Below the pieces are notes generated by a model. That model worked only from the letters and a program-made list of their open reading frames with translations, searched no databases and was not told the origin of the DNA. Positions 2,058 to 31,700 of a stretch of 64,000 bases of DNA are shown here, piece by piece. Numbering within the stretch: position 1 is the first letter of the stretch; each line of letters starts with the position of its first letter. A program made the position numbers and the translations under genes. Source of the stretch: Minisyncoccota bacterium. GTDB lineage: Bacteria; Patescibacteriota; Minisyncoccia; Phycocordibacterales; JAACPR01. The stretch covers positions 254,667 through 318,666 of the forward strand of contig JBAYWG010000001.1 of NCBI GenBank assembly GCA_041674225.1. The letters are read 5' to 3'.

Positions 2058-2461
2058 GATATACATCTTCTATTTTATTATATGACTATTGAAGAAAAAA
2101 TGTGTTTTTGTGGTAAAAATTTTATGCATTGCAACCAGTTTGAATGTATCAAAGCGACTTTCAGCATTCCGAACGGGAGTTTGAGCAATTAGTACACCTC
2201 AGCTGAACGTGTTGCCACGCTTATACTTGGTGCCTATCAACCTAATCATCTCTTAGGGCTCTCAAAAGATTTCTAATCTTGAGGTAGGCTTCCTGCTTAG
2301 ATGCTTTCAGCAGTTATCCCTTCCCGACATAGCTACCCGACGATGCCATTGGCATGACAGCCGGTACACCAGAGGTCAGTCCACTCCGGTCCTCTCGTAC
2401 TAGGAGCAGCTCCTCTCAAAAATCAACGCCTACAGCGGATAGAGAACCAACCTGTCTCACG

Positions 2462-2790
2462 CACCTTGCTCACCTATTACTAGGTGGATTGGACTATACT
2501 TTCTTCCCTAAGGAAGGCTGACATGTAGTCTCTACGGGTACATATTGATATGTTTCCCTCGGAATCGTCCTCGCTTAATAGCGATAGGATTTTCCCGATA
2601 TCAGTCAACTAATTCTTGTGTATCACTACACAAAACCGCCGTGATGTTGGTTCTATATTTTGGGACAGAAAGACAAAAATAATTCTTCTCGATAACCCTC
2701 GAAGGGATTCAGATTGATTCACACTTCAAGTTTTTTGTTTCTATATGTTTGACATCTTGGTCAGCACACATTCACACTCTTCAAGTGTGA
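2462..2790 (-). ncRNA. putative ORF-less group I intron in 23S at E. coli position L2593 (I-CreI homing site)
   Basis: 329-nt insertion exactly between ...GGGUUCAGACCGU and CGUGAGACAGGU; 5' exon ends in U and intron ends in G; contains R-like (GAGACUAca) and S-like (GUAUAGUCC) group I core elements. Confidence 0.55.
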
Positions 2791-3451
2791 ACGGTCTGAA
2801 CCCAGCTCGCGTATCTTTTTAATTGGCGAACAGCCAAACCCTTGGGACCTTCTTCAGCCCCAGGATAAGATGAGCCGACATCGAGGTGCCGAACACCGCC
2901 GTCGCTATGGACGCTTAGGCGGTACCAGCCTGTTATCCCCAGGGTAACTTTTATCCGTTGAGCTTCCTCCGCATCTAAAGCGAAAGGTCGGATCGCTATG
3001 CTCCACTTTCGTGTCTGCTCGGCATGTACGCCTTGCAGTTAAGCTCTCTTATGCCATTACACTATCGGCACGGTTTCCATTCGCGCCTAGAGAACCTTTA
3101 GGCCCCTCCGTTACAATTTAGGAGGGTAGCGCCCCACTAAAACTACCCACCAGATACTGTTCCCCGACGTTTTTGCCGTCGAGGTTAGACTATATATTCT
3201 CAAAGGATGGTATTTCACTGTCGACTCCATATCAACCGAAATCAATACTTCAAAGTCTCCCATCTATTCTGCGCAGAGAGAACATATACCCAATATCAAG
3301 CTGCAGTAAAGCTCCTGGGGTCTTTCTGTCCTGCTGTAGGTAGCCGGCATCTTCACCGGCATCGCATTTTCACCGAGCAAGTCCCCGAGACAGTTTCCCA
3401 GTCGTTACGCCATTCGTGCGCGTCTGAACTTACCAGACAAGGAATTTCGCT

Positions 3452-3752
3452 CTCTCGTGTTAACTCTATGTCGCCATAGAGGACGGACTCTATTTTACTT
3501 GATTTTACTCAAGCACTAGCATTTGGTCTCTGAGGATTCTAAAAATATTTTCATAAATTTAGTCTTTCCTGCTGATTGTCCGCACTCTAAAATTTTCACT
3601 GATTAAATAAATTTAATCTAGTATTTAAAGATACTCGGAGTTTCCAGCATATGGCTAGTTTTAAAAAGGCAGTTACTATTCTTTGTAACATGCTGTCTAT
3701 CACACCTTTATAACAGCCCCAATTCTTGGTAACACAATAAATTATGCTACCA
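3452..3752 (-). ncRNA. putative ORF-less group I intron in 23S at E. coli position L1931
   Basis: 301-nt insertion between ...GGUCCUAAGGU and AGCGAAAUUCC; 5' exon ends in U and intron ends in G; contains R-like (GGAAAGACUAAAU) and S-like (AUAGAGUCC) elements. Confidence 0.55.
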
Positions 3753-3787
<35 letters not shown>

Positions 3788-5226
3788 CGGGGCTTATATC
3801 GGTCAGCACTAAACACTCTACGCACGATTATGATTCAAAAATTTGAATCATGCGCACAGTGTTTAGCACCGCCAATATTTAACCTTCCGGCATTGGTCAG
3901 GCGTCACCCCCTATACATCCTCTTACGAGTTAGCAGGGAGCTGTGTTTTTGATAAACAGTCGCCAGGAATCTTTAGCTGCGGCCCACTTGCGTGGGCAGA
4001 CCTTATACCTAGGGTACGGTCGCTGTTTTGCCGAGTTCCTTGGGGACCCCTCACTCGTTCGCCTTGGTCTTCTCGACCTGACTACCTGTGTCGGTTTGCG
4101 GTACGGTCTCATTATGCTTAACCTTAGAAGCTTTTCTTGGAAGGCTCTTCGCTTAAGTTTGATGGCCTAAGCCACCATTCAGCCGACACCGAGTCTAACA
4201 TGAGCGGATTTGCCTACTCAATAACTCTAGTGCTAGCAACGTAAATCCAGTAATACGCTTAAACTTGTGTCCTCCGTCCCTCCATCGGAACATAATGAGG
4301 TGATGGAATATTAACCATCTGTCCATCGGATTCGACTTTCGTCATCTCCTTAGGCCCGACTAACCCTTCGCTGATTAACATTGCAAAGGAAACCTTAGTC
4401 TTTCGGCGTGCAGGAATCTCACCTGCATTGCGGTTACTTGTGCCAACATTCTTACTTCCACACGCTCCACGATGGGTCACCCCTTTCGCTTCAACGCAGA
4501 GTGGAATACTCTCCTACCAATCCACATGTGCGAACACACGTAAATTCCTCGTTTTCGGTAATACACTTAGCCCCGATCATTTGTGGCGCGTCATCTCTGA
4601 GCGAGTGAGCTGTTACGCTATCTTTAAAGGATGGCTGCTTCTAAGCCAACCTCCTCGGTGTCTCTGAAATGTCACAACCTTTCTTGCACTTAGTGTATAT
4701 TTTGGGACCTTAAACGGAGATCTGGGCTGTTTCCCTTTTGACCGACGGAGCTTAGCCCCCGTGGTCTAACTGCCATGCTCTTAATCTCTGGTATTCGGAG
4801 TTTGATAGGTCTAACGAGATTGCTCCCTGTTTAGACCTTCCAGTGCTCTACCCCCAGAAGGAACACATGACGCCAACCCAAAAGCTGTTTCGGAGAGAAC
4901 CAGCTATTACCAAGCTCGATTAGCTTTTCACTTCCTACCACAAGTCATCCGAAGGAGTTGAACTACCTACCGGTTCGGGCCTCCATTTATGTTTCCATAA
5001 ACTTCACCCTGCTCATAGCAAGCTCGCTTGGTTTCGGGTCTTATACGTACTACTAACGCGCTATTCACACTCGGTTTCCCTACAGCTCCAACCGACTAAG
5101 GTCTTAGCTTGCAGTACATATAAACTCGTTGGCTCATTCTTCAATAGGCACACCGTCACGGATCAAGTCCGCTCCGATTCCTTGTAGGCATATGGTTTCA
5201 GGTCTATTTCAACGCCCTTGTCGGGC

Positions 5227-5268
<42 letters not shown>

Positions 5269-5933
5269 TTCTAATATATTTAGCCTTGCCAGTTAGTTCT
5301 GGCGGATTCACCCGAGGTATTCGTGTCTCGGGCTACTCAAGAACAAACACAAGAGAGATTAAATTTTTTCGTATACGGGACCATTACCCTCTGGGGTACA
5401 ACTTTCCAGTTGTTTCTACTAAAATTTAATTTTGTAACTCTCCTCGTGAAGAAGTGTTTGTCTTACAACCCCAATCATACAAGTACGATTGGTTTGGGCT
5501 TTTCCCCTTTCGCTCGCCGCTATTGAGGGAATCAATATTTTTTTCTATTCCTCCAGGTACTGAGATGTTTCACTTCCCTGGGTAAGCATTACAAGTCAAG
5601 CTCGTAACGACCTATAAAAGGTCGGGTTTCCCCATTCAGAAATCTCCGGATCAAAGGTTGCTAGGCACCTCCCCGAAGCTTATCGCAGCTTTACCACGTC
5701 TTTCATCGCTATTAGAAGCCTAGGCATCCACCATACGCCCTTAGCACTCCCGTCAGGAATGCTAAAAACCGCTTTTTCTACATTTTTTGGTTCAATGCAA
5801 TTTCTACCTACATTTTTTCTTCAATTGTCGAAGATCTCATCGAACCCTCTTCCGGTTCGGCCTCACCATTCTGAACCGAAGTTCAAAATGACGAGGTCGA
5901 ATCACAAGTCACTTTTGTCTATATTTTATTTTT

Positions 5934-6077: not shown

Positions 6078-6845
6078 CTATATTATAGATTTGATTAATC
6101 GGAGCTTATTTTTAAGGCTCGCTTTTAGGGAGTGTGGATAGTGGTTTTTATGGTCATTTATTATCTGTCCGAGTGTTCTTACACCCTTTATTTTCCTCGT
6201 TTGAGAGATATTTGTGCCGTGTTTTTTATAAGCTGTGTAGATTTTAGGAAGGTTGGCAAATTTAAAGTTACGCCCTATATCTAACCACGCTGCAAGGTCT
6301 TCCCAAATGAAGTATTTCTCGTTATATGTGGGTAACGAATCTTTTCTAAATAAAACACTTGAGTGAGTAAACTGATTTTGTAGAAGAATTTTCTCGCGAA
6401 TTGATTCGTCTGTGGTTTCTGGTTTTAGTGTGCTTATTTCTTTATCTTCTGAATCAACTACTTTTGTAAAAGTCCCCACCAGCGCATAATCTGGATTTTG
6501 TTCTAGAAACTCTACTTGTTCAGTGAGCTTGTTTTCGTGTAGCCAGTAGTCATCACTGTCGAGCACTGCAATGTATTTACCCTGAGATTTTTGTAAGCCA
6601 AAGTTTCTGTTTTTTGTGATTCCTATGTTTCCCGCGTTTTTGTAATAAAAAATATTTGGATTTATAGCGGTGAAGTTTTTTACAATCTCTTCTGTATTGT
6701 CGGTAGAATTATCATCCACAATAATTATCTCGATGTTTAGATAATTCTGCGCAAGAGCTGATTCAATCGCCTTTGAAATCAATTTTGCACGATTAAAGGT
6801 ACAAATGTTTATACTAATTAGTGGTTTTTGGGCAATTGAATCCAT
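6078..6845 (-). CDS. family 2 glycosyltransferase (GT-A fold)
   Basis: ISINICTFNRAKLISKAIESALAQNY...IIIVDDNSTDNT...VLDSDDYW motifs; start moved to the internal Met (MDSIAQK). Confidence 0.8.
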   Translation of the reverse strand: MDSIAQKPLISINICTFNRAKLISKAIESALAQNYLNIEIIIVDDNSTDNTEEIVKNFTAINPNIFYYKNAGNIGITKNRNFGLQKSQGKYIAVLDSDDYWLHENKLTEQVEFLEQNPDYALVGTFTKVVDSEDKEISTLKPETTDESIREKILLQNQFTHSSVLFRKDSLPTYNEKYFIWEDLAAWLDIGRNFKFANLPKIYTAYKKHGTNISQTRKIKGVRTLGQIINDHKNHYPHSLKASLKNKLRLIKSII

Positions 6846-7711
6846 GTTTCTGGAATTATATTTTTGTGGGGGCTCGGCCATTGCTGTATCCAAGGAGTGG
6901 GAGCTATCACCAGCTTATCATGATTTTTATTTAGCCATGCTCCCCACCAAGAAAATGTTGAGTTGGATATTATGTTGTGTTTGCATGTGGACATTAGAAT
7001 TAATTCTTCTGGTGCAGATAGATTTTTATCTGAAATAATTTCAGAATTTTCGCTTAAATCAAAGTTTTCAGAAACCCATGCAGGATCGTCTGAGAAAAAG
7101 TAAAAGCTAGGATTTTCTACAGATTCTTTAATCGTGTTGATTGCGTTTTGATAATATTTTAATGAGCAAATTCCATGATATCTCCTAGCACCAGGATTTT
7201 GAACATAATCTCCACGTCGAACATGCACACTTACAGAATGACAATTCTGAATTTCAGTTTGCAAATCTTTAAAGGTTTCAGATTTAAATTCCTCTTTCAA
7301 TGAGAGTTCTTGAAGTAGTATCTCCCGAATTTCCAAAAAGTTCTTTTCACTTTGAAAATATCCTTCAACATATGCACTTTTATTTTTCTTTAATTTGTTC
7401 TCTATTTTTTTTAAAAAACTTGGATGGAAATCTATACGGTATTTAAAAAATATTTTTTGACTGATCTTTCGCATAATATCCGAAATTCTTCCGAATGGAT
7501 TTTTAATCTTTTGAATTTCTTCTATTGAGGCAGGTTTTGCTTGTATATTAAATTTAATTAAATCAAAATCTCGAGATATCTCTTTTTTATGACTAGGAAT
7601 CTGATTCGCATCCAAATATAGGTCGGCACCAGTTTTATAAGCCAAAAATCTTCCAGTCGCATACTCGAACATCTGATTTCCAAGCCCGCCTTTTATTTTG
7701 GTTATGATCAT
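6818..7711 (-). CDS. alpha-1,2-fucosyltransferase (GT11 family)
   Basis: N-terminal IITKIKGGLGNQMFEYATGRFLA motif and HVRRGDY motif, both diagnostic of GT11. Confidence 0.8.
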   Translation of the reverse strand: MIITKIKGGLGNQMFEYATGRFLAYKTGADLYLDANQIPSHKKEISRDFDLIKFNIQAKPASIEEIQKIKNPFGRISDIMRKISQKIFFKYRIDFHPSFLKKIENKLKKNKSAYVEGYFQSEKNFLEIREILLQELSLKEEFKSETFKDLQTEIQNCHSVSVHVRRGDYVQNPGARRYHGICSLKYYQNAINTIKESVENPSFYFFSDDPAWVSENFDLSENSEIISDKNLSAPEELILMSTCKHNIISNSTFSWWGAWLNKNHDKLVIAPTPWIQQWPSPHKNIIPETWIQLPKNH

Positions 7712-7718
7712 AAATTAA

Positions 7719-8447
7719 TTATTTTATAAAATGAAAACAGCCACATGCATATTTCTCTCCTAACAGTAAATTAATATCAGCGTTTCTAATTAGTCCACCA
7801 TCTTTAGAATCTTCAGGTATCAAAGAAAACTCTTTCAATCTCAATTCTGGAAACAGTTTTAAAACTTGATCATATGAATATATTCTGTGAGCGTTCCATT
7901 CTATTCTAGGTTCATCACTAATAGGCGTAACAAACAAAAGCGATCCATCTTTTTCTAAAACTCTAGATAATTCCTTGCAAGCATCAATATCTCCATCTGG
8001 ATTAATCGGGTCACCGTATCTTCCCAGTCCGATGTGTTCAATTGTATGCATACACGAAAGCGATTTAATACTTCCACTTTCAAAAGGTAGACTCATCAGG
8101 TTGCCCGACTTACTTTCTAAATTACTTAAAATCAAATCCGCGGGTCTTAAATCATAGAAATCCACCGGCACAAAAGCAGATACGATTCCAGAAAAATAAA
8201 GACTTGAAGATATATCAATATGTTTTTCCGGTTTGATTTCTGAAATAACTCTTGCAGCCCAAGACGTATGATACACATAATGCCTGTCAAAATTTGTTCC
8301 AATAGTTTTGTCTTTTATTTGAGGATAAAAATCTTTCAGCTTAATTGTAAATCTTTTTTCTTTATCAACTTTTAAAAATGAAAAATAATCTTTCAGAACA
8401 AAAGGAGTTAGTAATGTTTTGATAATTTTTTTTAAAAACTTTTTCAT
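7719..8447 (-). CDS. putative SAM-dependent methyltransferase (DUF268-like)
   Basis: 242-aa protein with a class I methyltransferase-like core (LSCMHTIEHIGLGRYGDPINPDGD); located in the glycan cluster. Confidence 0.45.
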   Translation of the reverse strand: MKKFLKKIIKTLLTPFVLKDYFSFLKVDKEKRFTIKLKDFYPQIKDKTIGTNFDRHYVYHTSWAARVISEIKPEKHIDISSSLYFSGIVSAFVPVDFYDLRPADLILSNLESKSGNLMSLPFESGSIKSLSCMHTIEHIGLGRYGDPINPDGDIDACKELSRVLEKDGSLLFVTPISDEPRIEWNAHRIYSYDQVLKLFPELRLKEFSLIPEDSKDGGLIRNADINLLLGEKYACGCFHFIK

Positions 8448-9172
8448 TGTTTAAATTTATTCAGAAGATTTTTTATATAAATCTTTGAAAATATTTTTCC
8501 GCCTCCGTGTCTTTTACTTATTAAAATCAATTCTTTGTCCATGTCACTCTTATTCTTTGAATTCGATTTTTGGTCTTCTCTGACCATAAAGTTTGATAGC
8601 ACCAAATCTATATATTTACTTGGTTTTTCTTTAATCAATTTAATATATAAATCATATTCCATCCAGTATTCCAAACTATCATCTAGGTATCCAACTTTTC
8701 TAACTAAGTCTAAATCATAAAAAGATGAAGGCTGATAAATTAGGTTACCTGAATTTATTAGTTTGTGAGATGATATGTTTTCAGGTGGTGTGTTAACAAG
8801 TGTACTGGTGTCACTCACAGAATTACATTTTCCATACAATATTGAAATCTCTCCTTTATTTTTTGAAAATTCTTCTGCCACTTTAGATAAAATATTTGGC
8901 TCATAATAATCATCGGCATTTATCCAAGCCACAACATCACCTGTAGCAATTTTAAAGCCTTTGTTTATTGCATCAGACTGACCTTTATCCTTTTCAGAAA
9001 TCCAAAATATTTTATCTCCGTAAGACTTTAATATATCAACAGTTTCATCTCTCGACCCGCCGTCAATTACAATCAACTCTTTGTTTTCGTAATCTTGATC
9101 AATAACGCTATCTATCGTTCTTTTAATATATCGGCCCAGATTATAGCTGGGAATTATTATTGATATTTTCAT
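8444..9172 (-). CDS. family 2 glycosyltransferase
   Basis: MKISIIIPSYNLGRYIKRTIDSVIDQDY...LIVIDGGSRDETV...WINADDYY. Confidence 0.8.
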   Translation of the reverse strand: MKISIIIPSYNLGRYIKRTIDSVIDQDYENKELIVIDGGSRDETVDILKSYGDKIFWISEKDKGQSDAINKGFKIATGDVVAWINADDYYEPNILSKVAEEFSKNKGEISILYGKCNSVSDTSTLVNTPPENISSHKLINSGNLIYQPSSFYDLDLVRKVGYLDDSLEYWMEYDLYIKLIKEKPSKYIDLVLSNFMVREDQKSNSKNKSDMDKELILISKRHGGGKIFSKIYIKNLLNKFKQ

Positions 9173-10251
9173 TATTTAAGTTTATCTAAAATTGCATCAA
9201 TTATTTTTCTTGATGCATCACCAACACCAAATGGATTCTCCCAGATTTTATTAAAATCGATCATTGTTTTAACAGAAGATAATATTTTCTCAGAATCAGC
9301 GCCGGCAAGTATATTTGCTCCAACCTCTATCGTTTCCGGCCTTTCTGTATTGTCCCTTAATGTTACGCAAGGCACCTTAAGAATACATGCCTCTTCTTGT
9401 ATTCCTCCAGAATCAGTCATGATTATTTTTGAATTTTTCTCTAACTGTATAAAATCAAGATAATCAACAGGTTCTATAATAATAATTTTTTCGCATGGTT
9501 TAATTTTAAATTGATCAATCATTTTGATTAATCTAGGGTGTCCTGGCAATAATATAGGCAACTTGGTAAATTCAGATACTTTTTCAAGTCCAACAAAAAT
9601 ACTTCTTAATCGTGATTCATTATCAACGTTTTCTTGTCGATGGATTGTAGATAAAATATATTCACCAGACTTCAGATTTACTCGCTTTAATATATCTGAA
9701 GTCTCTGAAATTTTTGAATGATCAATTAATGCATCTACAACAGTGTTTCCGGAAAGTAATATTTTATCTTCAGAAATTCCTTCATTTTTTAAATTATTAA
9801 TGGCATCAACTGTTGGTGCAAACAATAAACTCGATATGTGATCAACCATCACTCGATTAGTTTCTTCTGGCATTTGTGTGTCAAAAGATCTCAGTCCCGC
9901 TTCAATATGACCTACTGGAATATTTAACTTTACCGCAGCAAGAGCTCCTGCTAGTACACTGTTTGTGTCTCCTTGTACCAAAACAAAATCCGGTTTCTCT
10001 TCTATTAATTTTTCTTCTATGGAAATCAACATTCTTCCGGTTACCTGACCATGCGTTCCAGACCCAACATTTAAATTATGTTTTGGTTTTGGTAATTTCA
10101 AACAATCAAAAAATATCTCATCTAAGTTTTTTGAATAATGCTGATTTGTGTGAATTAGCACAAAATCAATTCCTCTAGACTCAAGTTCCTTGATTGTTGA
10201 AGAGAGTTTTATTATTTCCGGCCTGGTTCCAAATATTATGCAAATTTTCAT
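9172..10251 (-). CDS. wecB: UDP-N-acetylglucosamine 2-epimerase (non-hydrolysing)
   Basis: MKICIIFGTRPEIIKLS...HIEAGLRSFD...HRQENVDN; start placed at the internal Met, which abuts the upstream gene. Confidence 0.85.
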   Translation of the reverse strand: MKICIIFGTRPEIIKLSSTIKELESRGIDFVLIHTNQHYSKNLDEIFFDCLKLPKPKHNLNVGSGTHGQVTGRMLISIEEKLIEEKPDFVLVQGDTNSVLAGALAAVKLNIPVGHIEAGLRSFDTQMPEETNRVMVDHISSLLFAPTVDAINNLKNEGISEDKILLSGNTVVDALIDHSKISETSDILKRVNLKSGEYILSTIHRQENVDNESRLRSIFVGLEKVSEFTKLPILLPGHPRLIKMIDQFKIKPCEKIIIIEPVDYLDFIQLEKNSKIIMTDSGGIQEEACILKVPCVTLRDNTERPETIEVGANILAGADSEKILSSVKTMIDFNKIWENPFGVGDASRKIIDAILDKLK

Positions 10252-10256
10252 ATTTA

Positions 10257-11392
10257 TTATCTTAATTTTATTGTTTCTATTATATTTAAAAATGATTTTT
10301 CCCAAAGTTTGATATTAAAATTTTCCAGAACACTCCCCCTTTGCTCAGTAGAAAATTTATCAACATTATCCAAAACATCTGCTATAGACTTAGCGATTGA
10401 ACCGGGGTCTGGGTTTGTTTTGTATGCAGGAAGATCTTTTAAGCCCGCCACATCTGTAACAATTGTTGCCGTACCACAAGACATTGACTCCAATGCGCTC
10501 AAAGAGGTTCCCTCTTTGTCTAGTGTTGGAATTAAGGTGATTAATGAGGTGTTGTAATAATTAATCATCTCGTCTCTGTTGGCTTGACCTTTAAATATTA
10601 CCTTCTCATTTAAATCATATTTTGCAACCAGATCTATACAGTAATTATAATATTTACCAACACCACTCCCAACGATTAACATCTTAAAATCGGGATTAGT
10701 TTTTATAAATATATTGAATGACTCAATCGCAAGATGAATACCTCTGTCATAACTTATATTTCTTGGAACTAAAATTACTTTTTCTTTTTGAAATGTTTCC
10801 TTGGTCATTTTGAAAACTTCTGTATCTACACAATTTGGTACAAACCAAACATTTTTTTAACTTCCGAAAACATATTTTTTCCTGGCTCAACAGAGTAACC
10901 AATTTCTCTTAGAAAATTTGTGTCATTAGCCACAATAAAAACATCTTTGTTTTTTAGGTGTTTACTTATGTACTTATGATATATATCAAAAAAAACATTT
11001 TTTTTAGTATTACTCCATAAAACACCATGAGAAATTATGATGACTTTCTTGTGCCATTTCAATGGCGGATAATGAAATGGATAGTGACAAATTAGTATAT
11101 CTTGGTCTTTTAAGATTTTCTTAGAAAGAAATAAACCAATATTAAACGCAAACCAACCCGCGTTATATATAAATGGGTGTAATAAAAAATATCTCGGAAT
11201 TTGTGTAACAAAAAATATTTTTGTTCCGGTATTATTTTTTTGTTTTACTTTTCTTTGTAAAACACTAGCATCAAAATTATTTTCAACTAATATTTTATTT
11301 AGATTATCAATATAAACTTGTTGTCCGCCACTTATTGGCAAATAATGCATTGTAACCTGGCAAATCTTTGTTTTAGTTTTGTTTTCTTGCAT
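10257..11392 (-). pseudogene. GT4 glycosyltransferase split into N-terminal (10826-11392) and C-terminal (10257-10808) ORFs by a frameshift in an A7 tract
   Basis: The N-terminal ORF ends ...FSEVKKMFGLYQIV*; in the other frame the sequence continues VWFVPNCVDTEVF (the GT4 PNGVD motif), followed by a typical GT4 C-terminal domain; one extra A in the run at 10852-10858 restores a single reading frame. Confidence 0.6.
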
Positions 11393-12197
11393 GAATTATT
11401 TTCGTAAAATTTTGAGAATCTTCATCCCAAATATTTATTTTATAACCAAGTTTCTCAAGAAAATTAGACACATGAAACATCATTGGTATCGTGTGTATTT
11501 CAATAATCAATTCTGGACCATTTTGCTGTAATGTATTTATCCCACCTTCTAGTACCTTTAGCTCAGCTCCCTCAACATCAATTTTTATAAAATCTGGTAC
11601 TGATAATTTCTTTTGAGATATTAAATTATCTATAGTGTTTGATTCTACTTTAATTTTCTTGAAATCTTCGTAAGAATTTTCTTGCAAAGGAGGAGTCACA
11701 TCTTTTATATAACCACCAGATGAAGTAGCATCATCAGCATTTCCTACATTAAATTCCACTTCACCAACCTTGTTTGTGATTGCTTCTTTATTTATAAAAA
11801 TTCTTTTTGAATATGCTTCGTTAATATTTATATTTGACTCTAACCACTTTTGATTACTTGGGTTTGGTTCAAATGCATATACCAATGTTTCTTCACCGAA
11901 GGCTGATGAAAAAAATAATGATAAGTAACCAATGTGAGCTCCAATATCCCAAACAACTTTGTTTTTATTTGCGGCTAATTTTGATATCAAATCTATTTCA
12001 TAAGAGCCATCCAACATGCTCATATATGTTTCTGGAATTTCATTAGGCATAAGCAATGAAATATCTTTTTCCAAAACTTTTACGTTGTGAACATTCCAGG
12101 AATCCTTCTTTTTATCAAAATGTAAAAAATATTTTTTAAGTTTTTTAAACCAAGATTTCGGTGGGGAATTCCATATTTTCTTTAAGATTTTTTTCAT
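11373..12197 (-). CDS. FkbM-family methyltransferase
   Basis: VVWDIGAHIGYLSLFF...VYAFEPNPSN...FIKIDVEGAELKVLEGG. Confidence 0.75.
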   Translation of the reverse strand: MKKILKKIWNSPPKSWFKKLKKYFLHFDKKKDSWNVHNVKVLEKDISLLMPNEIPETYMSMLDGSYEIDLISKLAANKNKVVWDIGAHIGYLSLFFSSAFGEETLVYAFEPNPSNQKWLESNININEAYSKRIFINKEAITNKVGEVEFNVGNADDATSSGGYIKDVTPPLQENSYEDFKKIKVESNTIDNLISQKKLSVPDFIKIDVEGAELKVLEGGINTLQQNGPELIIEIHTIPMMFHVSNFLEKLGYKINIWDEDSQNFTKIIHARKQN

Positions 12198-13333
12198 ATA
12201 AGTATTTTTGACAATATCTCTTTAAAATTTTTATTAAATGATTCTAAACTATAATCTCTTAAAATATTTTCTACTATTCCAATCGAACGTCTTTTGAGCT
12301 CAATATTATCTAATGTTTGCGACAAATCCAATGAGTCTAATACTCCATCAGCACTTATTTCTCTTATCAAGATAGATAATTCATCTTGTTTAATAGATGC
12401 CTCATTAGTTAAAATTGGTATTAATCCCCCGTTAGCACAAACATTCACAACTGAAGTTGGCATAGCTTCGGAACAAGACGGTAAAATTACAAATGCACAC
12501 TTCGTTAATATTTTTTTAAAATTATCAGACTCAATTTTTACAAAGTCATATAAATGTATATTTTCACTTTTTAAATTTTCAGAAAATATTTTTACAAATC
12601 TTTTTTCATTCTGAAGTGGAGCACATACATGGAGATGGAGATCTTGTCTCTTTGAAAAAGCGTCCAATAAAACATCTAAACCCTTATGAATCATTCCTCC
12701 ACCACTAAAGAAAAGAAAATGTTTTTTTCCTTCAGAAAAATCTTTATCATTAATAATTTCCATTGGATTAAGTAATTCTATGAATGAAACGTTTAAATTA
12801 TAACAATCCGTATTTGTATATTTTTTATATGTATCAACCAGGTAATGGTCTCCTAGTAACACTAACGCATCGGAACCTATCGTCTGTATTGCATAATCTT
12901 TTTCTATAAATCTTAATGATTCTTTTAAAAGAACACCGCTTTTTTCGTAAACTTCAATACCCCGTTTTATTGTTGCCACATTGCTAAAATAAGGATGTCT
13001 TCCTGTACCATAGTAAATCCTTAATATTTTTTTAGAAGTAGAAAAACTTTTATCAAAAATATCCCCAAATCCAAATACAACATCATAATCTTCGTAAGCA
13101 ATTTTTTTAGTGCTGTTATAATCCACAACATCACAAATGAAACCTAGTTCATCAAATACTTTAGCAATTACCAAACTTTCTTGTATGTTGGTATGAGTTT
13201 TTAAGTTAGGTCTTTTAAAAGGAAAGGTAATGTAGGATATTAATACTTTCTTTTTGTGATTTCTGTTGAAAACATTACGGAGAATTAATTGCCTATTATA
13301 TATCGAGTATATTTTTCGTAGAATTTTTAACAT
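12194..13333 (-). CDS. glycosyltransferase, GT4-like (GT-B fold)
   Basis: C-terminal FLFFSGGGMIHKGLDVLLDAF...FVILPSCSEAMPTSVVNVCANGGLIP. Confidence 0.6.
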   Translation of the reverse strand: MLKILRKIYSIYNRQLILRNVFNRNHKKKVLISYITFPFKRPNLKTHTNIQESLVIAKVFDELGFICDVVDYNSTKKIAYEDYDVVFGFGDIFDKSFSTSKKILRIYYGTGRHPYFSNVATIKRGIEVYEKSGVLLKESLRFIEKDYAIQTIGSDALVLLGDHYLVDTYKKYTNTDCYNLNVSFIELLNPMEIINDKDFSEGKKHFLFFSGGGMIHKGLDVLLDAFSKRQDLHLHVCAPLQNEKRFVKIFSENLKSENIHLYDFVKIESDNFKKILTKCAFVILPSCSEAMPTSVVNVCANGGLIPILTNEASIKQDELSILIREISADGVLDSLDLSQTLDNIELKRRSIGIVENILRDYSLESFNKNFKEILSKILI

Positions 13334-13335
13334 AT

Positions 13336-14262
13336 CTAATTATTATTTAGTTTCCTCTTTAATAATCTTATTCGATATAATAAATTAGAATATAATCTTT
13401 CCAACATATTTGCCTTATAAAAATTATTGAATTGCACTCTATCAAGATAATGGTTTGCTTCTATTTTTTCAAGTAACATATCACTTAACTCTATTTCTTG
13501 GGTTTTTCGAAATAAATTCTGATCCTCAATTGTTTTTGTTGTTGTGTGTGTTCCTTGAACTCCAATATTCGTAACCAAATTATGTTTTGGTGTTATGCTT
13601 AATCCTTTATTTAATACACATGTATAATTCCATTGTATATCCCATGTATTTACTAGGTTGTGATAGGCGTGGTTAAATGAATCTTTGTAGTATTGGTATA
13701 TTTTTCTATCTTTATAAACATCTTCAAATGAACCTTCTTTAATAAGAATAGGCCACTCTTTCATTTCAATGTCATACAAATCCCAAGCTCTTTTCCATGT
13801 CGCCCATCCCCATATCTGAAAATGATTAGAGAAAAAATAATCATCATGAATTTCCAAATTTTTTAAGTGGTGTGTACCAGAAATCATCATAACTTGATTG
13901 TCATTTTTATATCTCAAAAGTAGTTTGGAACAGAAACTAAAAAAAGATTTATTCGGTAGACAGTCGTCTTCTAAAATAATTCCCATTTCTACATTATCGA
14001 AAAACCAAGTTATGGCTGAACTTATCGCCAATTTACAGCCTAAATTTTCTTCTCTAAATAATGTTTTCACTTCGCAGTCCCAATCAATATTTTTTACAAT
14101 TGATCTAACTTCCCCACATCTCAAACGATCATTATCGTTATTAATCCTCGGACCATCTGCGGCGATAAACAAATATTTAGGTTTTGCATTACGTATCTCA
14201 TCAAAAACCCTCTGAGTTGTATCAGGTCGATTAAAAACTAAAAATAAAATTGGTGTTTCCAT
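13336..14262 (-). CDS. GT-A fold glycosyltransferase (HlpA/GnT-I-like)
   Basis: METPILFLVFNRPDTTQRVFDEIRNAKPKYLFIAADGPR... resembles GT13-like bacterial transferases found in O-antigen-type clusters. Confidence 0.5.
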   Translation of the reverse strand: METPILFLVFNRPDTTQRVFDEIRNAKPKYLFIAADGPRINNDNDRLRCGEVRSIVKNIDWDCEVKTLFREENLGCKLAISSAITWFFDNVEMGIILEDDCLPNKSFFSFCSKLLLRYKNDNQVMMISGTHHLKNLEIHDDYFFSNHFQIWGWATWKRAWDLYDIEMKEWPILIKEGSFEDVYKDRKIYQYYKDSFNHAYHNLVNTWDIQWNYTCVLNKGLSITPKHNLVTNIGVQGTHTTTKTIEDQNLFRKTQEIELSDMLLEKIEANHYLDRVQFNNFYKANMLERLYSNLLYRIRLLKRKLNNN

Positions 14263-15584
14263 TATCTTTTGTAATTTAAATTAAAAATTGATTTTGTAAT
14301 CAGTAAAAAATGAGCTCGACTATCTTTAAACAAAACAATTGAAAAATTAACAACTAGATATGAAATTATGGTTGCATACGCCGCTCCTGCAATACCCATT
14401 TTTGGGATCAAGATAATATTTAAAACAATATTCAACAAGGCACCAATAATAGTTGTGTATAATGTTATTTTGGTTAAATTCTTTGCAATCAAATACTTTC
14501 CAATTACTATACCCAATGAAACTGCTACCAAAGACCAAATATAAACTTGTAGGACAGGAGTGGCTCCGATGTATTGTTCTCCAAAAAGTAATGTGATTAT
14601 TTTCTGAGCAAAAATTGAAACGACCGCTGAAAAAATTAAGGAAGACCAGAACATTACAAAATACAATTTGCTGAGCCTGCTTTCAAATTTTTCATTACTC
14701 ACACTTAATGAATTTATTATCGCTGGAAATATGGAAGCCCCTATGATGGTTGGTATGAGATACCAAATTTCTGAAAGTTTAACACTAATTGCATATATAC
14801 CCGTAGCTTCATTATTCAAAAAATGATTAATCATAATTTGATCAATTTTCATATAAACACCCACAGACAAGCCAGATAGAATCATGGGCCAAGAATCTCT
14901 TAACAAACTTAATGCAATTTTCTTATCAAATTTCCAATTCTTGAAGTGGTGACCACTTTTCAAAAACGCAACAATCAAAAATAGTGCAACTAAAGCTATT
15001 TCAACAACGTATATAAACAATAACCAGAAAATACCTTTATTTAATAATATAACTCCAAGTTTTAACACAGCTGAAATGATTCCAGACAATATTTGAGCTT
15101 TAACGATTTTTTTTGATAATACTTGTGATTGAAAATAAGTTTCTATAACATTAAAAGCCTGAGGCACGTAATGAAGTGAAAATAACCAAATAAGAATTAG
15201 AGTAAACATTTCGTCTGTAATGGCAAAAGATGCTAGAAAAATAAAAAATATAGCCAGTACGGATCCAGATATCTTTATAAAAAAAGCAGTTCCAATAATC
15301 TTATCTTTTATATTGTGATTTTTAACTATCTCTCTATTTACAATTTCATCAATACCTAAGGATGATAGGACACCAAAAATTCCTACAAAACTTATAGCAA
15401 AACTCATCAAACCATAATTCGATGGACCTAAATATCGAGCAACATATATCCCAACAAAAAACGAAATCGCTAAACTAAATATCCTACCTGCAAAAAGCCA
15501 ACCGGTGTTTTTGAAGTATTTTTGAAAGCCCTGATGCCTCCAAATTTCTGTTGTTTTACCCTTTATAGCCAGTAAGTTTTTCAT
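14262..15584 (-). CDS. wzx: Wzx-type oligosaccharide flippase (polysaccharide biosynthesis protein family)
   Basis: 440 aa with about 12 predicted TM helices and a Wzx-like N-terminus (ISFFVGIYVARYLGPSNYGLMSFAISFVG). Confidence 0.7.
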   Translation of the reverse strand: MKNLLAIKGKTTEIWRHQGFQKYFKNTGWLFAGRIFSLAISFFVGIYVARYLGPSNYGLMSFAISFVGIFGVLSSLGIDEIVNREIVKNHNIKDKIIGTAFFIKISGSVLAIFFIFLASFAITDEMFTLILIWLFSLHYVPQAFNVIETYFQSQVLSKKIVKAQILSGIISAVLKLGVILLNKGIFWLLFIYVVEIALVALFLIVAFLKSGHHFKNWKFDKKIALSLLRDSWPMILSGLSVGVYMKIDQIMINHFLNNEATGIYAISVKLSEIWYLIPTIIGASIFPAIINSLSVSNEKFESRLSKLYFVMFWSSLIFSAVVSIFAQKIITLLFGEQYIGATPVLQVYIWSLVAVSLGIVIGKYLIAKNLTKITLYTTIIGALLNIVLNIILIPKMGIAGAAYATIISYLVVNFSIVLFKDSRAHFLLITKSIFNLNYKR

Positions 15585-22141: not shown

Positions 22142-24400
22142 ATGTTATTATATAGAGACTTATTATCATCAATTAAACCAACAAAAGTGGCCAAGAAAAA
22201 AAACAGAAATAAAGATAGAAAGGATGTTGTGGAAGAGAGCGTTTCTTTTCTAAAAGAAGAAACCGTAGAAGCCATCATCGCTGTGGTATTTCTATTAGTT
22301 GGAGTGTTCCTGACTTTCGCAGCTTTTGGAAGTGCGGGATTTCTAGGAGACGCTGTCTATAGAGTATCTAATTTTCTTTTTGGAATTGGTTATTATTTAA
22401 TTCCTATAATTCTATTCGGATTAGGAATTTCTTTTTTAGCATCCCTGAAACACAACTTGGCAATCACAAAAATCGTTGGAGCTATCTTCATCTTCATCTC
22501 CGGATTAGGAATTGTTGATTTAGTTTTTGAAAAAGGAGGATTGATCGGAGACAAGCTGTCATTCGTACTTGAAAAACTTTTGGGATTTTGGGTGGCTTTG
22601 ATTTTCTTATTTTCGGTTTTACTAATTTCAGTTTTGGTAATATTCAACCTTTCACTAAAAGTAGATTTCAAAAAAATATTCGCTAAAAAAGAAAAATCTT
22701 TGACTGAGGAAGAGGATGCAATTTTGACAAAAGGAATTGAAAAAAATCTTCCACAAGAAAATCCAAATGATGATTATGATGACGAAGAGGATGCTCAGGT
22801 GCCGGTGATTTCTCCTACTCCAGCAGTAGCTCAATCTGCGAAACCAAGCGGATTGATTTTCTTTGCAAAAAGATCAGCACAACAAACTTTTACTCCCCCA
22901 CCACTTTCTCTTCTGCAAAAAGATTCTGGTAAACCAGAAGTAGGAGACGTGAAAGCAAACGCAAACATTATCAAAAGAACACTTTCAAATTTTGGTATTC
23001 AAGTAGAGATGGATGAAGTTTCAATTGGTCCGTCAATCACACGTTATGCTTTGAAACCTGCCGAAGGAGTAAAACTTTCTAGAATTGTTGCTTTGCAAAA
23101 CGACCTTTCTCTAGCACTTGCCGCCCACCCTCTCCGAGTCGAAGCTCCTATTCCTGGAAAGTCTCTAGTTGGTATCGAAATTCCAAACTCAATTAAAACT
23201 ACAGTTGGACTTGGTTCACTTATCAAAGATCCTACTTTTAATGATCCTTCAAAACCATTGAGTGTTTGTTTAGGAAAAGGGATCACAGGAAAAGCTACAA
23301 TTGCCAACTTTGCAAAAATGCCTCACGTACTTATCGCCGGAGCTACTGGTTCAGGAAAATCTGTAACAATTCACGCAGTTGTGACTTCTCTACTATATAA
23401 AAATCATCCAGACCAACTGAAATTCATTATGGTTGATCCAAAGAGAGTTGAGCTTACTCTTTATAATAAAATTCCTCACCTTCTAACTCCTGTTATCACA
23501 GATGCCAAAAAAGCTATTCTTGCTTTGAAATGGGCAGCAAAAGAAATGGATAGACGATACGATTTACTAGAAGAAAACGCAGTACGAGATATTCAGTCTT
23601 ATCATTCAAATATTTTGGAACCAGCTTTAAAGAAAGCAAAAGATAATCCTGAAGCTGAAGTACCAGAAAACATGCCTTATATAGTAGTAATCATCGATGA
23701 GTTGGCAGATATTATGCAGTCTTATCCTCGAGAACTTGAATCAGCGATTGTGCGCTTGGCTCAAATGAGTCGTGCGGTGGGTATTCACCTTTTGATTTCT
23801 ACACAAAGACCGAGTGTGAACGTTATTACTGGTTTGATTAAAGCCAACATCCCTACTCGTGTTGCATTGCAAGTGGCTTCACAAATCGATTCACGAACTA
23901 TTCTTGATATGCCTGGAGCTGAAAAACTTCTTGGAGCTGGAGATATGCTTTATCTTTCTGGAGAAATGTCACAACCGATTCGTCTTCAATCTGCTTTCAT
24001 TACAGAAAAGGAGGTGAAAGATGTTGTTGAATGGCTACAAAATCAATACAAAGATGAAATTGGTGTATCAAATATCGATCTTGGAGGAAATGCTAACAAT
24101 GATACAAATCCTATGGATGCAATCGCTGCTGCGGGGGGGTTTGATGAACCAGGAGACGACGATGATCTATATAACGAGGCGCGCCGGGTCGTGATTGAAG
24201 CAGGAAAAGCATCTACTTCATATATTCAAAGAAAATTGAGAGTTGGGTATTCTAGAGCGGCGCGCCTAATCGACCTATTAGAAGAAAGAGGTGTAGTTGG
24301 CCCTGCTGACGGCTCAAAACCTCGAGATGTAATAGGAGCTGGATCTTCTTCAGGAACACCACCTACAAACTACGATATAGACGAAGACGAACAATTCTAA
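22142..24400 (+). CDS. ftsK: DNA translocase FtsK/SpoIIIE
   Basis: N-terminal TM segments, Walker A GATGSGKSV, and a C-terminal gamma wHTH (YIQRKLRVGYSRAARLIDLLEERGVVGP). Confidence 0.9.
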   Translation: MLLYRDLLSSIKPTKVAKKKNRNKDRKDVVEESVSFLKEETVEAIIAVVFLLVGVFLTFAAFGSAGFLGDAVYRVSNFLFGIGYYLIPIILFGLGISFLASLKHNLAITKIVGAIFIFISGLGIVDLVFEKGGLIGDKLSFVLEKLLGFWVALIFLFSVLLISVLVIFNLSLKVDFKKIFAKKEKSLTEEEDAILTKGIEKNLPQENPNDDYDDEEDAQVPVISPTPAVAQSAKPSGLIFFAKRSAQQTFTPPPLSLLQKDSGKPEVGDVKANANIIKRTLSNFGIQVEMDEVSIGPSITRYALKPAEGVKLSRIVALQNDLSLALAAHPLRVEAPIPGKSLVGIEIPNSIKTTVGLGSLIKDPTFNDPSKPLSVCLGKGITGKATIANFAKMPHVLIAGATGSGKSVTIHAVVTSLLYKNHPDQLKFIMVDPKRVELTLYNKIPHLLTPVITDAKKAILALKWAAKEMDRRYDLLEENAVRDIQSYHSNILEPALKKAKDNPEAEVPENMPYIVVIIDELADIMQSYPRELESAIVRLAQMSRAVGIHLLISTQRPSVNVITGLIKANIPTRVALQVASQIDSRTILDMPGAEKLLGAGDMLYLSGEMSQPIRLQSAFITEKEVKDVVEWLQNQYKDEIGVSNIDLGGNANNDTNPMDAIAAAGGFDEPGDDDDLYNEARRVVIEAGKASTSYIQRKLRVGYSRAARLIDLLEERGVVGPADGSKPRDVIGAGSSSGTPPTNYDIDEDEQF

Positions 24401-28723: not shown

Positions 28724-31700
28724 CTAAAGGCTATTTATAAAATTCCTAGTAATCGAACCAAAGTACCCCACCGCAGGAACAATCCCTACAGACATCTGGA
28801 AGTTGGATAGTGCAATCTGAGTTAATCTTCCAAAGAATGTAGTTTCTTGGCCGATTGATCCAGGACCTGATGTTGCAACTGTGAATCCTTGTGTATTTAG
28901 GAATTGTTGAAGTAGTTTCACTTCAGGGTCTTCATCGTTTAGTTCTAAGTCTTTAGTGAAAGTTGGAGTTTCTTCTGTGGTACTTGTATCACTAGAGAAC
29001 CAAGAATTAAATTCTTCTTTCATCTTTGAAATTAGATCTTGTATTTTTGAAGTGTTCTCTGGTTCAGATTGTATTGTTGATTTAAGTTCTGTTAGTAGTG
29101 AGTCTATTATGGTTGAAACAACTGAAGGTGTATCATCAGATGGAGTGTTGTTTGAAGATGAAGAAGAACCTCCTGATCTACTTCTAGATGATGGTGCTCT
29201 GTTTGTTGGTGTTTCTTCAACAGCTTCTTCTTCTTCGACAGTTTCTTCTGCGGCAGCAACCGTAGTGAAGTTCCATGTTGTTGAATCAGAGATTCCTTCA
29301 AAATAGTTTTCATAGTTATCAGAAACAGCAGTGTTTGGAATAATTATATAGTATGAAGTTCCATTAGATAAATCAGACTCTGGATTGATAGTGATTCTAT
29401 CTAGACCAGTTTGTGATATTTCATCTCCTTCAACATCAATTGTTAGAACTGTTGAGTCATCAGATGTTTTTTTGATAAGGATGTTTCCAGTTCCTACAGA
29501 TATAACTGAATTGAAAATCATGACTAGGTTAGAGTCTATTGCTACGTCTGTTGCGTTGTCTAAAGGTGAGAGGGTTTGAATTGGTGGAGGTGTTGTGTCT
29601 ATAAACAAATCTTTATTTGCAGCAAGGTTTGTAGCAGGTGTGAAGTTCACCATTGCATTACCTTCTTGATCAGCAATCGTTCCTGAGATTGAAGATACTG
29701 TCAAATCATCTGATTCATCACCTGCTTGTACAGTATAGTTACATGTTCCAGTGTCTGCGTTTGATACAGTGAATGTACATGTTCTATCTGTTGTTCCAGT
29801 TTCTAGAGTTACAGTTACGTTTCCAGTTGATGTGACAGCTTCAGAGAATGTTACGTCGATGTCGATCACTTCGCCCACTCCGTATGTACCGTCGGCTTTA
29901 GAAGAAGAAACTGAGGTAATTGTTGGTGCTGTGACGTCGTAGCCGAGGGTGGTGGTGTAGATGTATCCATTATAAGCAGGAGCAGCTAATTTGGATCCAT
30001 CATCAGATGAGGCAATATCGTACCAGTTTCTTAAACCTGCATCTGTTTGAGATATCCAAGTTTGACCCGAATCAGCAGAAACGTATAAATATCCATCATA
30101 TACACCGGCCGCAAGTTTAGTACCGTCTGATGATGATGTAATGCCGTACCAACCTCTTGAACCAGATGAGTTTGAGTTTGTAGTCCAAGTCACACCTGAG
30201 TCTGATGAAGTGTAGATGTATCCGTTGGTAACAGTAGCCGCGAGTTTTGTACCGTCTGATGATGATGTGATCCTCCTCCAATTTCTTGAACCAGATGAAT
30301 TTGAGTTTGTAGTCCATGTAGCACCTGAGTCTGATGAAGTGTAGATGTATCCAGGAGTCGAATCAACAGCAGCTAGTTTAGTTCCGTCTGATGATGATGT
30401 GATACCTTGCCAACCTCTTGAACCAGATGAATTTGAGTTTGTAGTCCATGTAGCACCTGAGTCTGATGAAGTGTAGATGTATCCGTTATATGCAGCAGCA
30501 GCGAGTTTTGTACCATCCTCAGATGAAGTGATACTTTGCCAATTTCTTGAACCAGACGAGTTTGATTGTGTACCCCACGTCGCTCCAGAGTCGGTTGAGG
30601 TGTATATGTATCCACTAGCAACAACTGCGGCAAGTTTAGTACCGTCTGATGAAGAAGTTATGCCAGACCAACCTCTTGAACCCGCATCGGTTCGCTCAGT
30701 CCATGTCGCTCCAGAGTCGGTTGAGGTGTATATGTATCCACCACTAACAGTTGCTGCGAGCTTAGTACCATCAGCAGATGAAGCCATTCTGGTCCACGCC
30801 TTATTACCAGAACTTACATGCTGTGTCCAAGTATTTTCACCCACAACAATATCCTTATTAGAAGAAAGATTTGTAAAACCTACAAAAACACTCATTTCGT
30901 TAAAGAAATTATCTGTAATTGTTCCTGATATTGAAGATACTGCTAAATCAGCAGAAACATCACCTTCTTGCACAGTATAATTACATGTTCCAGTTAATGA
31001 ATTTGCCACTGTAAATGTACATGTTCTGTCTGTTGTTCCAGTCTCTAGTGTGACAGTGACGTTTCCTGTTGAAGTTACAGCTTCAGAGAATGTGACATCA
31101 ATATCGATTACTTCTCCCACAGTATAAGTTCCATCAGCTTTATCTGAAGAGATTGAGGCGACTATTGGTTCTACAACATCTTCAAAAACAGAAACTGCTC
31201 CATAAGACATCGCTCCCACTATTTTTGTTCCAGCACCATCTATTGCTATATATGATAGTTGTTCCACATCTTGCATAACACTCCAAATTGAACCTCCATC
31301 TATAGATATATAAGGACTACTAGCATTACCTGCAGCAGCGACTATTCGACCTCCATCAGAAGACATATCAACATCAGTCCAATTTCTTGAACCTGCACCA
31401 GTTTGCTCAGTCCACGTCACTCCAGAGTTGGTTGAAGTGTAGATGTATCCATTACTTACAATAGCAGCAAGTTTTGTTCCATCATCAGATGATGTGATGC
31501 CAGACCAATTTCTTGAACCAGATGAATTTGAGTTTGTAGTCCACGTCTGTCCAGAGTCGGTTGAGGTGTATATGTATCCTCCATAAACAACAGCAGCGAG
31601 CTTAGTACCGTCTGATGATGATGTGATACCTTGCCAATTTCTTAATCCTGAAGAGTCTCCATTTGTATTCCACGACGCTCCTGAGTCTGATGAAGTGTAG

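Follow-up and report, generated by a model that had tools for sequence, protein, structure and literature searches.

What has happened to a surface-glycan glycosyltransferase gene that loses its reading frame at a run of seven adenines? The window (the whole 64,000-nucleotide stretch of DNA analysed here) contains such a gene, and a sequence-only reading of it had offered three answers, namely a phase-variation switch, a pseudogene or a sequencing error, while leaning towards the first. The evidence gathered here favours a pseudogene or null allele, leaves phase variation unsupported and makes a sequencing error unlikely. The guess that the locus belongs to a minimal genome was right, as the DNA derives from a Candidatus Paceibacterota MAG. 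The gene is made up of the following parts.

10257 to 11392, minus strand: the whole frameshifted GT4 gene, 378 aa after addition of one A, 62-65% identical to intact orthologs of 369-375 aa in syntenic islands.
10826 to 11392, minus strand: N-terminal ORF of 188 aa, comprising the GT-B N-domain up to K180, then the out-of-frame octapeptide MFGLYQIV; the stop is a TAG at 10828-10826.
10852 to 10858, minus strand: the A7 homopolymer, where the frame is lost; A8 gives ...EVKKNVWFVPNCVD...
10809 to 10853, minus strand: 45 nt translated by neither ORF; the downstream frame reads NVWFVPNCVDTEVFK, which covers the last N-domain beta-strand and the inter-domain linker (PNxVD motif).
10257 to 10808, minus strand: C-terminal ORF of 183 aa; it holds the whole C-terminal Rossmann domain, including the E-x7-E motif (E294...E302).

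The interruption of a GT4 reading frame at the A7 run was borne out, together with the limits of both ORFs (11392-10826 and 10808-10257). The run appears as T7 on the plus strand; on the coding strand its surroundings are GTT AAAAAAA TG, within the minus-strand context ...TTT TCG GAA GTT AAA AAA ATG TTT GGT TTG TAC CAA ATT GTG TAG... Two details called for revision. The stop had been placed five codons past the run; the TAG in fact lies 23 nt past it, and the two AAA codons are followed by eight more that encode M F G L Y Q I V. The peptide VWFVPNCVDTEVF, ascribed to the second ORF, does share the frame of that ORF but lies upstream of its ATG and is encoded by neither ORF. The downstream frame opens at a TAA at 10859-10857 (from GT-TAA-AAA) and reads KNVWFVPNCVDTEVFK ahead of its first ATG at 10808, which follows the TAG by 17 nt.

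The TAA at 10859-10857 and the TAG at 10828-10826 bound the shift to about 30 nt, and, judging from the alignment with homologs, the frameshift is placed within K179-N181, inside the A7 run. A one-unit change in tract length toggles the frame: A7 gives two ORFs, whereas one additional A at the run gives an uninterrupted protein of 378 aa (the earlier estimate was about 375 aa). Removing two bases also restores the frame, yielding 377 aa. The spacing after addition of one A equals the homolog consensus EVxxNVWF[IV]PNCVDT without a gap, and no second lesion besides the frameshift was found in the GT4 gene. In NCBI, the N-terminal ORF is recorded as MFA7193547.1, "hypothetical protein", and the C-terminal ORF as MFA7193546.1, "glycosyltransferase"; the locus tags in that MAG are WC087_01370/01375.

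The repaired 378-aa protein is a predicted GT4/GT-B glycosyltransferase, an assignment on which Pfam, AF2 and Foldseek agreed. Residues 199-342 matched the Pfam family Glycos_transf_1 (PF00534) at 83 bits (E 2.3e-23; cut-off 26.4), while the N-terminal match to Glyco_transf_4 was weak and below its cut-off (22.1 vs 28.5 bits). Among NCBIfam equivalogs, none scored above cut-off for the repaired protein. The AF2 model, built from a 36-sequence alignment, showed a complete GT-B fold (pLDDT 94.4, pTM 0.92), and the best structures retrieved by Foldseek were SPS 6KIH, BshA 6D9T, PimA 2GEJ and MshA 3C4Q (E 1e-15 to 1e-17), with PglA also found, all of them GT4; by sequence, the closest solved relatives are GT4 enzymes of the BshA type. 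The catalytic or nucleotide-sugar E-x7-E motif was identified as E294-GTSLSAL-E302, and both glutamates are invariant among the 36 aligned homologs. Across the same 36 sequences, P186 and N187 are also invariant, and W183, C188 and F194 are at least 90% conserved. In the model, the predicted strand E182-184 is the last of the N-domain and is followed by the linker to C-beta-1 (E204-209).

Is the broken frame an inherited arrangement or an event peculiar to this genome? The answer comes from the surroundings of the gene and from its orthologs.

6078 to 15584, minus strand: ten-gene low-GC (28-31%) glycan-synthesis island holding the broken gene; every other gene is full length.
Gene order within the island, from 6078 up: GT2, GT11, DUF268 methyltransferase, GT2, WecB UDP-GlcNAc 2-epimerase, GT4 (split).
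Gene order within the island, continued past the split GT4: FkbM methyltransferase, GT4-like, a 308-aa unknown, Wzx-type flippase.

The island, whose GC content of 28-31% compares with about 36%, adjoins the 23S-5S rRNA genes. All of the roughly 120 best homologs of the repaired protein are single polypeptides of 353-391 aa and none is split. Three orthologous islands carry an intact GT4 gene in the same FkbM-GT4-WecB order. For example, the island of L007 (GCA_036681025.1) is collinear with all ten genes at 43-65% amino acid identity, and only the GT4 of the window is broken; at 62% identity to L007, the repaired GT4 is the second most conserved gene of the island. At the site of the tract the orthologs read CAAAGAAAT (L006) and TTTAAAAAT (L007 and L008), with no tract there, and their own A7, A8 and T8 runs are located elsewhere, in frame. 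Since the roughly 120 homologs, including those of the three syntenic islands, carry one intact gene, the GT4 split is derived and specific to this genome. The sequence-only reading had named split orthologs, together with reads uniformly A7, as what would refute it in favour of a stable pseudogene or two-ORF arrangement; the orthologs proved intact. A GTDB genome scan with the repaired protein returned no relative and hence no sister genome, and a protein-guided metagenome scan returned only glycosyltransferases at 23-25% identity.

A frame break at a homopolymer raises the suspicion of an artefact, in which consensus calling dropped one A from a true A8 and so disrupted a gene that is intact in the organism. 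Indel errors classically occur at homopolymers, the GT4 gene is free of any other defect, and the public copies may all stem from one read set. Still, we hold this explanation to be improbable. A separate short-read contig from ENA, k141_245379 (ERZ27247358, 234 kb, MEGAHIT naming), carries the same A7 and agrees base for base across the site; over 16.5 kb it departs from the window at a single position, a substitution within the 23S gene, and there are no gaps. Records of the two split ORFs exist in NCBI, JGI, Logan and ENA, and the Logan assembly has the same truncated protein. Moreover, the 47 other genic A/T runs of at least seven in the 64-kb window, eight of which are 8-mers, are all in frame, which indicates that homopolymer errors are not a general problem of this assembly. 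Given the same A7 in the MEGAHIT contig and these 47 runs, a sequencing error is unlikely, bearing in mind that the assemblies may share reads.

Scanning the window for frame breaks at homopolymers produced four candidates, and only the A7 of the GT4 gene was genuine. The other three junctions (33042, 12188 and 6868) were rejected as homopolymer frameshifts, being ordinary boundaries between different complete genes. The interruption of the GT4 frame is significant: it is the sole homopolymer-linked frame break in the window, in a gene whose roughly 120 homologs are single-chain.

Could the two ORFs together still form an enzyme? Alg13/Alg14 is a naturally split GT-B enzyme, and in a similar manner the N- and C-domains could be made apart, with re-initiation at the ATG at 10808, and assemble non-covalently. 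The gap of 17 nt between TAG and ATG and the tight coupling of the island genes would suit such an arrangement. No SD-like motif precedes the ATG at 10808, and this is uninformative because only 3 of the 47 genes have one; SD motifs are hardly used in this organism, and their lack is no obstacle. In L003 (Ga0480384_0157895), too, the C-terminal half stands alone, starting with CVDTEVF. L003 is the closest relative (86% amino acid identity), and its homology stops about 25 nt downstream of the site, beyond which lies unrelated DNA with no match in the window, reflecting either a chimera or a real truncation. As evidence for a split it is weakened by its nature, a 978-bp contig joined to unrelated DNA that may be chimeric. 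More directly, the 15 residues N181-K195 (10853-10809) are in neither polypeptide, among them the invariant P186 and N187 and the near-invariant W183, C188 and F194. In the structural model these missing residues make up the final strand of the N-domain together with the linker, the N-terminal fragment ends in an eight-residue out-of-frame tail, and 0 of the roughly 120 homologs are split. With 15 conserved residues, P186 and N187 among them, left out of both ORFs, a functional two-ORF enzyme is unlikely on sequence and model grounds, and for assembly in the manner of Alg13/Alg14 the probability appears very small indeed.

Surface-glycan transferases are the class of genes most often phase-variable, and the LOS genes of Neisseria and Haemophilus undergo phase variation driven by SSRs. 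If the GT4 gene were a contingency locus, slipped-strand mispairing at a hypermutable A7/A8 repeat would flip the glycosyltransferase between OFF (A7) and ON (A8), and the surface glycan would vary. A one-base change of the tract does toggle the frame, in a gene that is otherwise pristine, under strong purifying selection, with an intact peptide in the bridging 45 nt, and this surface-glycan gene sits in a variable low-GC island. There is also a precedent in a minimal genome, where a 7-base poly(A) tract switches p78 of Mycoplasma fermentans (Theiss and Wise 1997, as cited in PMC2831843 and PMC3711429). Some CPR lack MutS and MutL, Saccharibacteria being at least one such phylum (PMC8406219).

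The properties of the tract, however, make a contingency locus unlikely. Whether as A7 or, in the ON state, as A8, it falls far short of the poly-A/T cut-off of 10 or more, which PhasomeIt derives from experimental precedent (PMC6321876), and a comparable tract, the A6/A7 of Listeria inlA, changes at a mutation rate of only about 1e-7 (PMC2831843). The longest A/T run in the window is 8, with none of at least 9. The homologous site of the orthologs (CAAAGAAAT, TTTAAAAAT) has no tract, and the A8 and T8 runs of the GT4 gene itself, like the runs of its orthologs, are stably in frame. Nor are such runs enriched. The 64 kb contain 64 A/T runs of at least seven, and an A7 by itself is not unusual; compared with codon shuffling, 48 such runs were observed across 47 genes against 57.5 expected, and four against 2.4 in the GT4 gene (p=0.22). 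Runs of this length are compositional background.

The intact allele was sought as well. In an exact look-up among about 15 billion proteins, the A8 and -2 proteins were both absent, while the split ORFs and both neighbours were present; exact look-up was chosen since a homolog search had missed the window's own two ORFs despite their presence. An exact-pattern scan of JGI metagenomes for junction variants from A6 to A10 gave 0 matches, and tract length showed no polymorphism between public assemblies, all of which have the A7 products. Tract length, tract conservation, run enrichment and the ON allele all count against the earlier lean towards phase variation, with the A7 of p78 as a counter-precedent. 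There is little probability that this CPR bacterium has a working switch whose short poly(A) is hypermutable because mismatch repair is weak or lacking, as it is in Mollicutes, and that the assemblies caught it in the OFF phase. If such an A7/A8 switch is real, it would give the Candidate Phyla Radiation its first described contingency locus, a surface-glycan gene made phase-variable by an SSR.

The frame could also be recovered during expression rather than in the DNA. A -1 slip of tRNA-Lys on A AAA AAA, or stuttering of RNA polymerase that adds an A, would then still yield a useful amount of full-length enzyme. The required shift, -1 (equal to +1 A in the mRNA), falls on Lys codons, in principle the most slippage-prone context (PMC5009743, PMC3017870), and A7 would permit a -1 slip of the P-site tRNA-Lys. 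Across the bridging 45 nt the conserved peptide has been preserved, the GT4 shows no accelerated evolution, and in Buchnera and Blochmannia slippage has been proposed to compensate for frameshifts in poly(A) runs (PMC3017870). Nevertheless, a transcriptome-wide study of Buchnera found no frame restored by slippage (PMC5574713), and A7 falls below the length usually needed for appreciable transcriptional slippage, put at 8 nt or more (PMC3711429) or at 9 nt or more (PMC3017870). The heptamer read in phase, U AAA AAA, does not fit X XXY YYZ, no stimulatory RNA structure was found (the fold of 10780-10875 has z = -0.51), SD-like elements hardly serve this organism (3 of 47 genes), and the frameshift is absent from all orthologs. 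Recoding that supplies useful amounts of enzyme thus appears quite improbable; rescue at trace level by slippage on A7 may occur. A downstream hairpin, UUUGGU/ACCAAA, was considered as a stimulator and rejected, being no better than shuffles and a by-product of the conserved VWFVPN codons.

The sequence also bears on the age of the break. Between the C-terminal half and its 86%-identical counterpart in L003, dN/dS is 0.064 at dS of about 1.3. Signs of secondary decay (further stops, indels, relaxed dN/dS) were not found in the gene, and there is no excess divergence. Given this dN/dS, the lack of a second lesion and the unexceptional divergence (62% identity to L007), the sequence comparisons indicate that the break is recent and, if the gene is a pseudogene, that it is a very young one. 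An intact bridging peptide and a lack of further decay are equally expected of a reversible switch or of a gene rescued by slippage.

Overall, we consider that a frameshift has probably produced a young null allele of the GT4 gene, which is on its way to becoming a pseudogene; the gene belongs to a variable surface-glycan island carried by a Candidatus Paceibacterota population. The frame is interrupted relative to intact syntenic orthologs, and the lesion is reproduced in the MEGAHIT contig, whose reads may be shared. In reduced genomes rich in AT, gene erosion typically begins with poly(A)-tract indels (PMC3017870). The presumed event is a single-base deletion within codons 179-181, which could have taken either of two routes: replication slippage may have shortened an AAA AAA AAT (A8) tract, or a G may have been lost from a sequence like AAA AGA AAT (compare CAA AGA AAT in L006), which would leave exactly the A7 of today. 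The ancestral state need not be A8.

Translation from the normal start ends eight codons past the run at the TAG and gives an N-domain fragment that lacks the last beta-strand and the linker. The C-terminal domain, which binds the nucleotide sugar, is in the other frame, and its first ATG lies past 15 conserved residues. For a null allele of this kind, no complete enzyme would be made, save for a trace from -1 ribosomal or transcriptional slippage on A7, so that one sugar-transfer step of the island glycan would be missing or strongly reduced in the dominant genotype. Alongside it a minority A8 subpopulation may exist, and assemblies built from the same reads may share a systematic consensus error. 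Reversion from A7 to A8 would be possible in principle, at the ordinary mutation rate of homopolymers and not through a specialised switch.

These results document, in an uncultivated CPR bacterium, the fresh inactivation of a gene within its surface-glycan island. Their value is modest. The phenomenon is ordinary, the lineage is poorly studied, and the case shows such islands diversifying by the knock-out of a single gene. They also provide a useful annotation correction, since NCBI lists the halves as separate proteins and not as one disrupted gene. A7-A8 runs are found roughly once per kb in small AT-rich genomes, and a frameshift at such a run is therefore no evidence of phase variation without length polymorphism at the level of reads or of multiple strains. 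An A8 or AAAAGAAAT, if intact in sister strains, would date the lesion.

We compared the gene with several known systems. The retaining GT-B enzymes of family GT4 (BshA 5D00/6D9T, PimA 2GEJ, MshA 3C4Q and PglA 8DQD) have, like the gene here, two Rossmann-like domains and the E-x7-E motif, and they have in common with the repaired protein the PNxVD linker and a C-terminal helix that returns to the N-domain. However, the repaired protein is only 12-20% identical to any solved enzyme, and the gene here is interrupted. In a split of the Alg13/Alg14 type, each polypeptide contains one whole domain and relatives share the split, neither of which holds for the GT4 gene.

Among switches, the poly-G tracts of Campylobacter LOS and capsule genes (PMC6321876) resemble the GT4 gene in that the length of an intragenic homopolymer sets the frame of a glycan transferase. 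Known SSR switches, though, use tracts that are atypical of their genome (poly-G of at least 8 in AT-rich genomes), conserved between strains and visibly polymorphic, whereas the A7 of the GT4 gene is of the background type, is missing from the orthologs and has the same length in the assemblies compared. A counterpart in tract length is p78 of M. fermentans (PMC2831843, PMC3711429), in which a one-base change in a short, 7-base coding poly(A) tract likewise abolishes the product. There, however, A7 is the in-frame state, the tract lies near the 5' end, and reversible switching at high frequency was demonstrated with clonal lineages.

The erosion of genes in Buchnera and Blochmannia (PMC3017870, citing Moran 2009 and Tamas 2008) offers a further parallel. 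As here, the genome is small and AT-rich with many genic poly(A) and poly(T) runs, and a one-base poly(A) indel frameshifts an otherwise intact gene with no further lesions. Where slippage rescue was shown in these endosymbionts, the tracts measure 9-12 nt, against 7 nt here. Finally, Buchnera and Blochmannia are insect endosymbionts, whereas the host here is a free-living or episymbiotic CPR bacterium, and the gene affected belongs to an accessory glycan island and not to the core.

The split GT4 glycosyltransferase gene, whose frame is broken at an A7 run, also carries longer homopolymers. An A8 and a T8 run, separated by 2 nt (10988-11005), lie inside the minus-strand N-terminal ORF (10826-11392); on the coding strand the pair reads ...CTAAAAAAAATGTTTTTTTTGAT.... 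Both runs are in frame and undisturbed, although they are longer than the A7 tract at which the frameshift occurs. In NCBI, the region 10257-11392 is represented by two separate proteins rather than one disrupted gene, MFA7193547.1 (“hypothetical protein”) and MFA7193546.1 (“glycosyltransferase”).

The closest relative of this gene resides on a 978-bp metagenomic contig (JGI 3300042959, Ga0480384_0157895), with 86% amino acid and 82% nucleotide identity. This homologue comprises the C-terminal half alone, beginning with the residues CVDTEVF. At about position 285 the contig passes into unrelated DNA (GC content 39% vs 30%); relative to the site that corresponds to the A7 run, this junction lies ~25 nt further downstream. 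Either the short contig is chimeric, or the same gene has been disrupted a second time, independently, near the domain boundary.

Poly-G/C tracts are usually considered for phase variation from a length of at least 7. The sole G/C run of this length in the window is a G7 at 24133-24139 on the plus strand, in frame within an intact FtsK/SpoIIIE gene (22142-24400). In formal terms, this cut-off makes the G7 a stronger candidate for phase variation than the A7 run; its host gene, however, is of an essential type, and the G7 is probably incidental.

The split gene belongs to a glycan island of ten genes (6078-15584), whose GC content is 28-31%, compared with about 36% in the flanking DNA. A metagenomic contig of GCA_036681025.1 retains the same gene order at an amino acid identity of only 43-65%. 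This combination of collinearity and low identity suggests that the island is a conserved cassette that is either fast-diverging or exchanged. The 23S-5S rRNA genes directly adjoin the island, and two inserts were found in the 23S rRNA gene:

2170-5754, minus strand: 23S rRNA gene, 3585 nt compared with a 2925-nt model
About 3464-3721 and 2470-2658: inserts in the 23S rRNA gene that match group I introns

The inserts scored 48 and 37 bits, near the threshold of the group I intron model (gathering score 50). The only ORF of at least 90 aa in the 23S region lies on the strand opposite to the rRNA gene. The inserts look like group I introns without an ORF. Such ORF-less introns are frequently reported in 23S genes of CPR bacteria.

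Shine-Dalgarno-like motifs were detected within 22 nt upstream of the start in only 3 of the 47 genes window-wide, these upstream regions being simply A/T-rich. Translation initiation in the bacterium appears to be largely SD-independent.

The window also encodes what is probably a large surface protein:

28724-32170, minus strand: 1148-aa protein, mostly repeated units of ~35 aa

Its repeat unit, ...GYIYTS[ST]DSGxTW...SGSRxWxxITSSxDGTKLAA..., resembles the BNR/Asp-box repeats of beta-propellers.
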